Virus record (IMG/VR): IMGVR_UViG_2534681936_000019
Source of the DNA: a virus
Taxonomy: Duplodnaviria; Heunggongvirae; Uroviricota; Caudoviricetes
Strand: one strand, 5' to 3'
DNA: 26,751 bases
In this document: positions 12,677-13,415 of the stretch, piece after piece
Numbering within the stretch: position 1 is the first letter of the stretch
Layout: each line of letters begins with the position of its first letter
Translations under genes and position numbers: made by a program
The notes under the pieces: model-generated
Seen by the model: only the letters and a program-made list of their open reading frames with translations
Database searches by the model: none
Told to the model about the DNA's origin: nothing

Positions 12677-12869
12677 GAATCCTCCCGGCCGGGATAATAT
12701 TGTGAGTAAAATGAGGAGCGGGCTGAAGTCCGGAAGTTATAGGACAATGGCAGAAGAGAGACAACAGCCCGCAATACGAAAAAGGCCGCGCTATTGCGCA
12801 GAGTGATTACTGTCGGATATTATTCGCCAGCTGAAATATTACTTCACGTTTTGTTGTTTATTCCTTGCC

Positions 12870-12898
12870 GCCCGCGTCTCCCTGCGCGGGCTTTTTTT
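12870..12898 (+). terminator. Intrinsic terminator hairpin on the plus strand in the tRNA-to-nanS spacer
   Basis: GCCCGCG TCTCCCTG CGCGGGC followed by TTTTTTT. Confidence 0.4.
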
Positions 12899-13165
12899 GT
12901 CCATAAGAAAGCCCCTCCGGAGAGGGGCTGGAGAGTGGCGCTATGTGCCATTGCATGGTGCCGGGTGCCTCCCGGTGAATTCAGTACCAGCACCTGAATC
13001 CGCGATTATCCCATATACCTACTCGCTGATTGCCCCTCCGCACAGGGGGATTCACCATGCCAGTTTCTTTTAACAAACTCCCCGCAAACCAGACAACAGT
13101 CAACCGCCTGAATTGTGAGACATTTAAAAAAAAGGCCCGCAAAAGCGAGCCAGGGAAAATAAGTG

Positions 13166-13242
13166 TGGCGCGTTGTACTGGATTCGAACCAGTGACCGAT
13201 TGCTTAGAAGGCAATTGCTCTGTCCGGCTGAGCTAACAACGC
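13166..13242 (-). tRNA. argO: tRNA-Arg (anticodon UCU), argO-like
   Basis: Cloverleaf read by hand: acceptor GCGTTGT/ACAACGC, D-arm AGCTCAGCCGGACAGAGC, anticodon loop CTTCTAA, T-arm CTGGTTCGAATCCAG, 3' GCCA. Confidence 0.8.
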
Positions 13243-13255
13243 AGGATACAGATAA

Positions 13256-13332
13256 TGGACCGCCTTCGGGGACCCGAACTCCGCGCAACCAGCTTCGAAA
13301 GCTGGCGCTCTTTCCTGATGAGCTAATGGCGG
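13256..13332 (-). tRNA. argN: tRNA-Arg-like (anticodon UCG by my reading), argN-like; two stem mismatches
   Basis: Anticodon stem-loop CCAGC TTTCGAA GCTGG, D-arm GCTCATCAGGAAAGAGC, T-loop TTCGGGT; one mismatch each in acceptor and T stems. Confidence 0.55.
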
Positions 13333-13339
13333 TATGTGA

Positions 13340-13415
13340 TGGTGGCCCTTGCTGGATTTGAACCAGCGACCTGGCGATTATGAGTCGCTCGCTCTCACCA
13401 CTGAGCTAAAGGGCC
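13340..13415 (-). tRNA. ileZ: tRNA-Ile2/Met (anticodon CAU), ileZ/ileX-like
   Basis: GGCCCTTTAGCTCAGTGGTGAGAGCGAGCGACTCATAATCGCCAGGTCGCTGGTTCAAATCCAGCAAGGGCCACCA on minus strand; closely resembles E. coli ileX. Confidence 0.8.

Follow-up and report, generated by a model that had tools for sequence, protein, structure and literature searches.

In the 26,751-nt Caudoviricetes sequence IMGVR_UViG_2534681936_000019 (the whole of this stretch is called the window here), a cluster of three transfer RNA (tRNA) genes lies downstream of an annotated Q family gene and is followed by a short spacer, by nanS-p, which encodes a prophage sialate O-acetylesterase, and by a holin gene, the genes all being on the minus (late) strand (Table 1). 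A preliminary description, made from the letters alone, regarded the spacer of ~490 bp as the empty toxin slot of an stx-negative relative of Shiga toxin (Stx)-converting phages. By comparing the locus with known prophages and with RNA families, we located the stx position at the junction between the tRNA unit and the DNA that follows it, and found two small RNA (sRNA) genes in the spacer.

The three tRNA genes called by ARAGORN carry the anticodons CAU, UCG and UCU in that order, and each scores above the 29-bit cut-off of the Rfam tRNA model, in agreement with the ileZ-argN-argO order first proposed; identical genes are named ileZ1-argN1-argO1 in the Sakai annotation. The cloverleaves of ileZ and argO are intact. 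Beyond argO the spacer measures 489 bp (12677-13165), and the esterase and then the holin follow, as had been described. NanS-p proteins combine an N-terminal DUF1737, a catalytic SASA domain and a lectin-like C-terminal domain (PMC10462455), and the 616-aa product has this architecture: Pfam assigns DUF1737 (PF08410), SASA (PF03629) and DUF6645 (PF20350), PDB matches comprise the NanS/YjhS structure 3PT5 over residues 60-379 (E 2e-120) and 6YP6, the NanS-p C-terminal domain, over residues 421-613 (E 1e-29), and the GQSN catalytic serine motif lies at residues 71-74. Judged by its sequence the protein is a NanS-p-like esterase, as initially suggested, with predicted Neu5,9Ac2 esterase activity. 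The gene is also known from non-Stx prophages in the literature.

Table 1. Features of the cargo region and its surroundings (window coordinates).
Feature	Position	Strand	Basis
Class II (P21-type) holin gene	10172-10447	-	PF04971, E 3.5e-32
nanS-p, prophage sialate O-acetylesterase, 616 aa	10826-12676	-	Pfam, PDB matches, GQSN; ortholog of ECs_1088
Late-strand hairpin and T run (CTGCGCAATAGCGCGG CCTTTTT), upstream of nanS-p, conserved in Sp5	12778-12801	-	Terminator scan; alignment
Convergent sRNA, EcOnc08/EcOnc21 ortholog	12733-12898	+	Hfq-CRAC peaks; probe match; conservation
STnc100-family sRNA gene (RF02076), EcOnc05 ortholog	12899-13089	-	cmscan 138 bits (cut-off 47), E 8e-32
Junction of tRNA module and sRNA-nanS-p module; stx2AB point in Stx2 phages, unoccupied here	13122-13125		BLAST breakpoints; base-level view
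Intrinsic terminator after argO, GGCTCGC-TTTT-GCGGGCC + T8	13126-13151	-	Terminator scan; junction sequences
tRNA-Arg(UCU), argO type	13166-13242	-	ARAGORN; Rfam 70.1 bits
tRNA-Arg(UCG), argN type, degraded	13256-13332	-	ARAGORN; Rfam 42.9 bits
tRNA with CAU anticodon, ileZ type (RefSeq: tRNA-Ile; ARAGORN: tRNA-Met/Ile(cat))	13340-13415	-	ARAGORN; Rfam 72.5 bits
Sigma-70-like promoter match, TTGATT-17-TATTAT, just upstream of ileZ; possible promoter of the tRNA unit	13426-13454	-	Consensus scan only
AraC-family regulator gene, ortholog of Sakai ECs_1087 (psrA); upstream cargo of the late-region zone	13444-14157	-	Pfam HTH_18/HTH_AraC; Sp4 annotation

The spacer had been described as holding only hairpins. 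Both hairpins are present, at 12870-12891 on the plus strand (followed by seven T residues) and at 12929-12910 on the minus strand, but they are the terminators of two sRNA genes; a terminator scan of 12500-13600 found six terminator-like sites, compared with 1.1 +/- 1.0 in shuffled sequences. On the minus strand, a cmscan match above the Rfam gathering cut-off and covering model positions 1-206 identifies a copy of the STnc100 family, whose terminator (12929-12903) is the perfect GCCCCTC/GAGGGGC hairpin at 12910-12929. The published northern probe for EcOnc05 matches plus-strand positions 12997-13031 exactly and so detects a minus-strand RNA, the STnc100 copy, and the published STnc_100 quantitative PCR primers match the window exactly as well. 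Hfq binding and northern detection were reported by others for the 99.7%-identical Sakai locus (Tree et al., 2014; PMC4104026), and Table S2 of that study gives EcOnc05 of Sakai prophage Sp4 a size of ~222 nt on northern blots and a peak in five of five data sets of Hfq crosslinking and analysis of cDNA (Hfq-CRAC). By this size, the 5' end of STnc100 may lie nearer ~13124. Sp5 (207.7 bits) and Stx2_95 carry a member of the same family 75 nt beyond stx2B, a position that agrees with PMC12370729; the family also occurs twice after stx1B in an Stx1c phage and in the stx-negative phi296, Lahn2, Nil3 and PhiR5_1.

Convergent with STnc100, a plus-strand RNA ends at the other terminator, its T run reaching 12898. 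Two Hfq-CRAC peaks (1179938-1180010 and 1180016-1180101) map to 12824-12896 and 12733-12818 on this strand if the coordinate offset at Sp4 between the 2014 and current Sakai records is zero, and the probe shared by EcOnc08, EcOnc21 and EcOnc42 is an exact match to the minus-strand sequence 12790-12824, and hence detects a plus-strand RNA. Table S2 of PMC4104026 likewise puts EcOnc08/EcOnc21 on the strand opposite EcOnc05, at ~271 nt and with a homolog, EcOnc42, in the Stx1 phage Sp15; this size may place the 5' end at ~12628, inside nanS-p and antisense to it. Conserved copies of the RNA occur in Sp15 (98.7% over window 12660-12960), PhiR5_1, phi296 and Stx2_95, and Sp5 has AsxR in its place.

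AsxR and AgvB (RF02703/RF02702) form a class of 51-60-nt RNAs with a conserved 3' region of ~42 nt (GTATCTCATGC..TTGCCCGAACCCAYTCGGGC), convergent with an STnc100-type sRNA. We considered the plus-strand RNA for this class and rejected it: Rfam returned no match to either family at E<=1 in 12300-14300, whereas AsxR of Sp5 scores 88 bits, and what the RNA shares with the class is limited to its position and a weak mafft alignment over the 3' part. The RNA is therefore filed as EcOnc08/21 type. An alternative is that the RNA (~12630-12898) is a regulator, either controlling nanS-p translation in cis as an antisense RNA, given its expected overlap with the leader and first codons of that gene, or acting as a divergent, longer relative of AsxR/AgvB, in which case the single-stranded G/U-rich stretch 12843-12865 ahead of the terminator may act in trans; we consider this unlikely. 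Separately, an 11-nt segment at 12839-12849 (TTACTTCACGT) is identical, in the same sense, to nt 40-50 of Spot 42 and is conserved in Sp15, phi296, PhiR5_1 and Stx2_95, not in the Stx1c phage. The identity hints at mimicry of a core sRNA, a weak lead that may be due to chance: 11 of 1000 shuffles gave a match at least as long, and it came out of an informal comparison with several sRNAs.

Could the spacer nonetheless be inert non-coding DNA that holds only transcription terminators? Both hairpins do resemble plain intrinsic terminators, and the folding energies of the whole transcripts are unexceptional (z-scores of -1.2 and -1.6), so that the two sRNAs would have gone unnoticed on structure alone; but the STnc100 match stands 91 bits above its cut-off, published probes and primers match exactly, Hfq-CRAC peaks and northern bands are on record for the Sakai locus, and the spacer is 72-99% conserved across divergent phages, which makes this explanation highly improbable. 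The idea that the spacer encodes one or more small proteins draws on a partial 'hypothetical protein' pseudogene in RefSeq (window 12945-13070, plus strand), on TTG-start open reading frames (ORFs) of 58-77 aa that overlap the spacer, and on small coding sequences called here by PGAP and PHANOTATE in some records. We regard it as extremely unlikely, as every such ORF starts with TTG and overlaps a high-scoring structured RNA on the opposite or the same strand, PGAP marks the ORF as incomplete, and conservation follows the RNA helices and terminators. With two sRNA genes in it the spacer is not empty, and the locus is an ordinary one. When genomes are scanned, a short 'non-coding spacer with hairpins' beside phage cargo needs an sRNA screen before it is labelled empty.

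The stx position itself is defined by comparison with Stx2 phages. In Stx2_95 the order is argO, stx2A, stx2B, a 510-bp spacer and nanS-p. BLAST aligned window 12569-13122 with the stx2B-to-nanS-p segment of this phage (79% identity) and window 13125-13418 with its tRNA segment (93%), and Sakai Sp5 gave the same breakpoints, 13122/13125, so that the 1332-bp stx2AB cassette corresponds to a seam of 2-4 bp in the window. At base level, the tRNA side of the seam ends in the argO terminator and a T run, and the other side begins TCTCACAATTCAG; Sp5 and Stx2_95 retain this terminator ahead of the stx2 promoter. The ~490-bp spacer is not the toxin slot: the same segment lies between stxB and nanS-p in Stx2 phages (Sp5, Stx2_95) and in Stx1 phages (Sp15, Stx1c), and, kept downstream of stx in both, it is not a gap left by the toxin. 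What holds of the preliminary description is that the locus is homologous to the stx region and is without stx. Searches of the whole window with the stx1 and stx2 cassettes and proteins (blastn at word size 7, tblastn) returned no stx DNA or protein similarity. The stxA and stxB genes that an Stx-converting prophage has between the Q/tRNA region and nanS-p are thus absent, and we found neither the stx promoter or coding fragments nor the near-identical stx-positive flanks that would mark a deletion derivative of an Stx phage.

Other prophages interrupt the alignment at nearly the same place (13119-13130) and have other cargo there, a TciA/TerB-like gene in Sp11, iraM-like and TciB genes with a second STnc100 copy in 813R8, and ~640 bp in mEp460. 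A 211-bp probe found the unoccupied argO/STnc100 seam contiguous in 1005 of 5426 complete Escherichia coli genomes, including isolates that are not Shiga toxin-producing E. coli, and 599 of these 5426 genomes have an argO/stx2A junction. A toxin-free arrangement common among non-Stx phages, which the preliminary description had itself named as telling against an empty slot, is close to what is seen, here and in PMC4104026, yet the site is the stx position.

These data bear on whether the prophage descends recently from an Stx-converting phage through a precise deletion of stxAB. The stx2AB cassette does map to a single clean point of the window, and phi296/315/367 and TL-2011a (genus Traversvirus) are examples of stx-negative phages built on the backbone of an Stx phage. 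However, alignment to the stx flanks, suggested earlier as a way of finding deletion scars, showed no scar and no stx remnant; identity to the flanks of the Stx2a phage is only 79% on the sRNA side and 93% on the tRNA side; the arrangement is fixed at 99.7-100% in O55:H7 and in Sp4 of O157:H7, and it occurs in many serotypes; the unoccupied junction is commoner than the stx2-occupied one; and unrelated cargo occupies the same seam elsewhere. At the cassette ends, the only direct repeat or microhomology was a T run in common and a few bases of 'TAA..TGT', which is uninformative. The nearest stx-positive spacer, running from nanS-p to inside STnc100, is that of Sp15 (87.7% over 511 nt), a prophage without the tRNAs. 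Because of the 1005 and 599 counts, the distance of the flanks from those of the stx-positive phages examined and the near-identity of O55:H7 and O157:H7, the favoured explanation, as far as sequence comparison can indicate, is an unoccupied seam in a mosaic prophage; recent precise deletion appears very unlikely. In lambdoid prophages, then, the stx position is a seam between autonomous modules (the tRNA unit, the convergent sRNAs and nanS-p) that holds toxin genes less often than it holds other cargo or nothing, and missing stx at this seam is not evidence of toxin loss.

Over 12400-13700 the window is 100% identical to E. coli O55:H7 DEC5A/DEC5B, and at least 598 of the 5426 genomes, of many serotypes, carry at least 80% of this segment in one piece. 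In Sakai the ortholog is Sp4, with 99.7% identity over 1301 bp (4 substitutions), the same gene order, 489-bp spacer and argN, and exact matches to both sRNA probes; its genes are psrA/ECs_1087, ileZ1-argN1-argO1, EcOnc05, EcOnc08/21 and ECs_1088. It differs from the window by the four point differences and by an IS629 after nanS-p, the window being closest to O55:H7. Sp3 and Sp11 were also considered as the ortholog and set aside, Sp3 having no match and Sp11 a partial one only. One of the four differences falls at position 13415, the first base of ileZ, which is G in the window and A in Sp4; the A would unpair the acceptor stem at 1:72 in Sakai, and of the two copies that of the window is intact.

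Tree et al. (2014; PMC4104026) described convergent Hfq-bound sRNAs at a moron site downstream of pR', the pair in Sp5 being AsxR and EcOnc27, 3' of stx2B, and found the same organisation in Sp3, 4, 9, 10, 11, 15 and 17. Stx2 phages of the Sp5/933W type and Stx2_95 (ileZ-argN-argO, stx2AB, STnc100/EcOnc27, AsxR, nanS-p) have the module order of the window, and Sp5 and Stx2_95 share with it the tRNA module and terminator (93%), the STnc100 sRNA and the nanS-p leader; they differ in the stx2AB cassette at 13122/13125 and in an intact argN, and in place of the EcOnc08-type 3' end of the window Sp5 has the 53-nt anti-sRNA AsxR, window 12802-12951 being without a BLAST match in Sp5. The stx1 locus of Sp15 consists of stx1AB, an STnc100-like sRNA, EcOnc42 and nanS-p, and unlike the window it has no tRNA genes annotated between Q and stx1. 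A further group comprises stx-negative phages with the Stx-phage backbone (vB_EcoP_phi296/315/367, TL-2011a and PPwrbA, with the fragments Nil3 and Lahn2), in which STnc100 and nanS-p come directly after the tRNAs, with no stx between them; identity to Nil3 is 98-99% across tRNAs and spacer, whereas phi296 and Lahn2 lack psrA, carry a 933W-type Q region and are ~28 nt longer at the seam, and overall identity in the group is ~78-86%. According to a 2026 preprint (Zhu, Shabalina & Storz), the PasD sRNAs of enteropathogenic E. coli E2348/69 adjoin a sialic-acid esterase gene in lambdoid prophages and have a structure related to that of STnc100; the window copy scores as STnc100 in Rfam. We conclude that the locus is the already described, ordinary cargo region of a toxin-free lambda-like E. 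coli prophage of the Sp4 type.

Taken together, the evidence makes it probable (about 0.85) that the region is the cargo ('moron') zone in the late operon of an Sp4-type stx-negative lambdoid prophage, with self-contained modules laid end to end along the minus strand. The boundaries of these modules, like the sequence identities and the covariance-model membership, were determined directly. The first module would be the psrA-like AraC regulator gene; the second, the ileZ-argN-argO unit, closed by its own intrinsic terminator (13151-13126); the third, the STnc100/EcOnc05 Hfq-binding sRNA gene, again with its own terminator; the fourth, the plus-strand EcOnc08/21-type sRNA, back-to-back with STnc100 at 12898 and presumably antisense to the nanS-p leader; the fifth, the late-strand hairpin (12801-12778); and the sixth, nanS-p followed by the lysis genes. 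The stx2AB position is the seam between the second and third modules, which in this prophage carries no cargo. Lambdoid biology and the literature, from which we infer the promoters, read-through and the tRNA and sRNA functions, suggest that in the lysogen the tRNAs, both sRNAs and psrA would be transcribed as autonomous units, each with a promoter and a terminator of its own, and that upon induction Q-modified polymerase from pR' would pass the three late-strand terminators, so that nanS-p and the lysis genes are expressed. The tRNAs would supply decoding of rare AUA and AGA/AGG codons, and the sRNAs would act through Hfq-dependent base pairing with their targets.

Several observations weigh against this picture. 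A sigma-70 consensus scan found two sites where 1.1 were expected, and no promoter could be assigned with confidence in it: the match upstream of ileZ is a weak one without a counterpart in Sp5, where homology ends at 13418, and no convincing sigma-70 promoter was found for STnc100, the TTGACT at ~13098-13103 being without a good -10 element. The northern sizes of ~222 and ~271 nt exceed the Rfam extent of STnc100 and the predicted-promoter extent of the plus-strand RNA, respectively; for STnc100, the Rfam model start (13089) and the northern size are ~30 nt apart, and for the plus-strand RNA a promoter match at 12670-12698 would give ~194 nt. The placing of the CRAC peaks assumes a zero offset, which the probe position supports.

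STnc100 is duplicated in two of the phages compared. In phiSTEC1589-Stx1c (L009, 2723-3209) a tandem duplicate lies downstream of stx1B, and in vB_EcoS-813R8 (L007, 2030-2687) two copies flank the iraM-like/TciB cargo block. These duplications suggest that cargo is exchanged by recombination anchored in the sRNA module.

We also compared argN with the copies in Sp5, phi296 and Nil3 and with the relic copies in Sp11, mEp460 and 813R8. The two stem mismatches noted in the preliminary description appear in the ARAGORN cloverleaf as A.A (acceptor stem) and A.C (T stem); the T loop reads TTCGGGT, compared with TTCGAGT in Sp5, and mismatches and loop together set the window copy, which is identical to argN1 of Sp4, apart from those of Sp5 and phi296. 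Its Rfam score is the lowest of the set (42.9 bits, against 50-56 bits in other phages). In Sp11, mEp460 and 813R8, argN is reduced to a 75%-identical relic with indels in which no tRNA is called. By these comparisons argN is measurably degraded relative to the Stx-phage copies, and it is probably losing function; the earlier suggestion of decay was a reasonable one. The erosion is graded across prophages, from intact in Sp5 through mismatched in Sp4 to a relic in Sp11, mEp460 and 813R8, and provides a small, clean example. In Stx2_95 (L004, 6537-6613) the tRNA at the argN position has the anticodon loop CTTCTAA, with anticodon TCT instead of TCG, giving that phage two tRNA-Arg(UCU) genes.

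Rare-codon usage fits a role of ileZ and argO in decoding. The main ORFs of the window contain 4.9 AGA, 3.7 AGG and 8.3 AUA codons per 1000, about twice the E. coli genome average, and usage is highest in psrA (12.7 AGA, 12.7 AGG and 29.5 AUA per 1000). The psrA gene, ecs1087 of Sp4, encodes a prophage regulator of type III secretion that acts via gadE (PMC13502914); its ORF is 237 aa long in the window, and Sakai annotates 588 bp (195 aa).

Further features lie outside the cargo region. Between the holin and lysozyme genes, a 329-aa ORF (9178-10167, minus strand) has a DUF1327 (YdfR-like) domain in its N-terminal 100 aa and a long uncharacterised extension; a matching 990-bp gene is annotated in Stx2_95, and DEC5A annotates only a truncated YdfR pseudogene there. 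At the 3' end of nanS-p, a promoter-like site (10697-10726) and a terminator-like hairpin with a T run (10804-10828) delimit a plus-strand interval, 10697-10830, that roughly matches the position of the Sakai Sp4 Hfq-CRAC peak EcOnc52 and is possibly a further antisense sRNA. In the early region, an Rfam match to the sok antitoxin RNA (20361-20533, minus strand; 110 bits, cut-off 59) adjoins a hokD-type toxin ORF, annotated hokD in DEC5A, the pair being a type I toxin-antitoxin locus inside the prophage.

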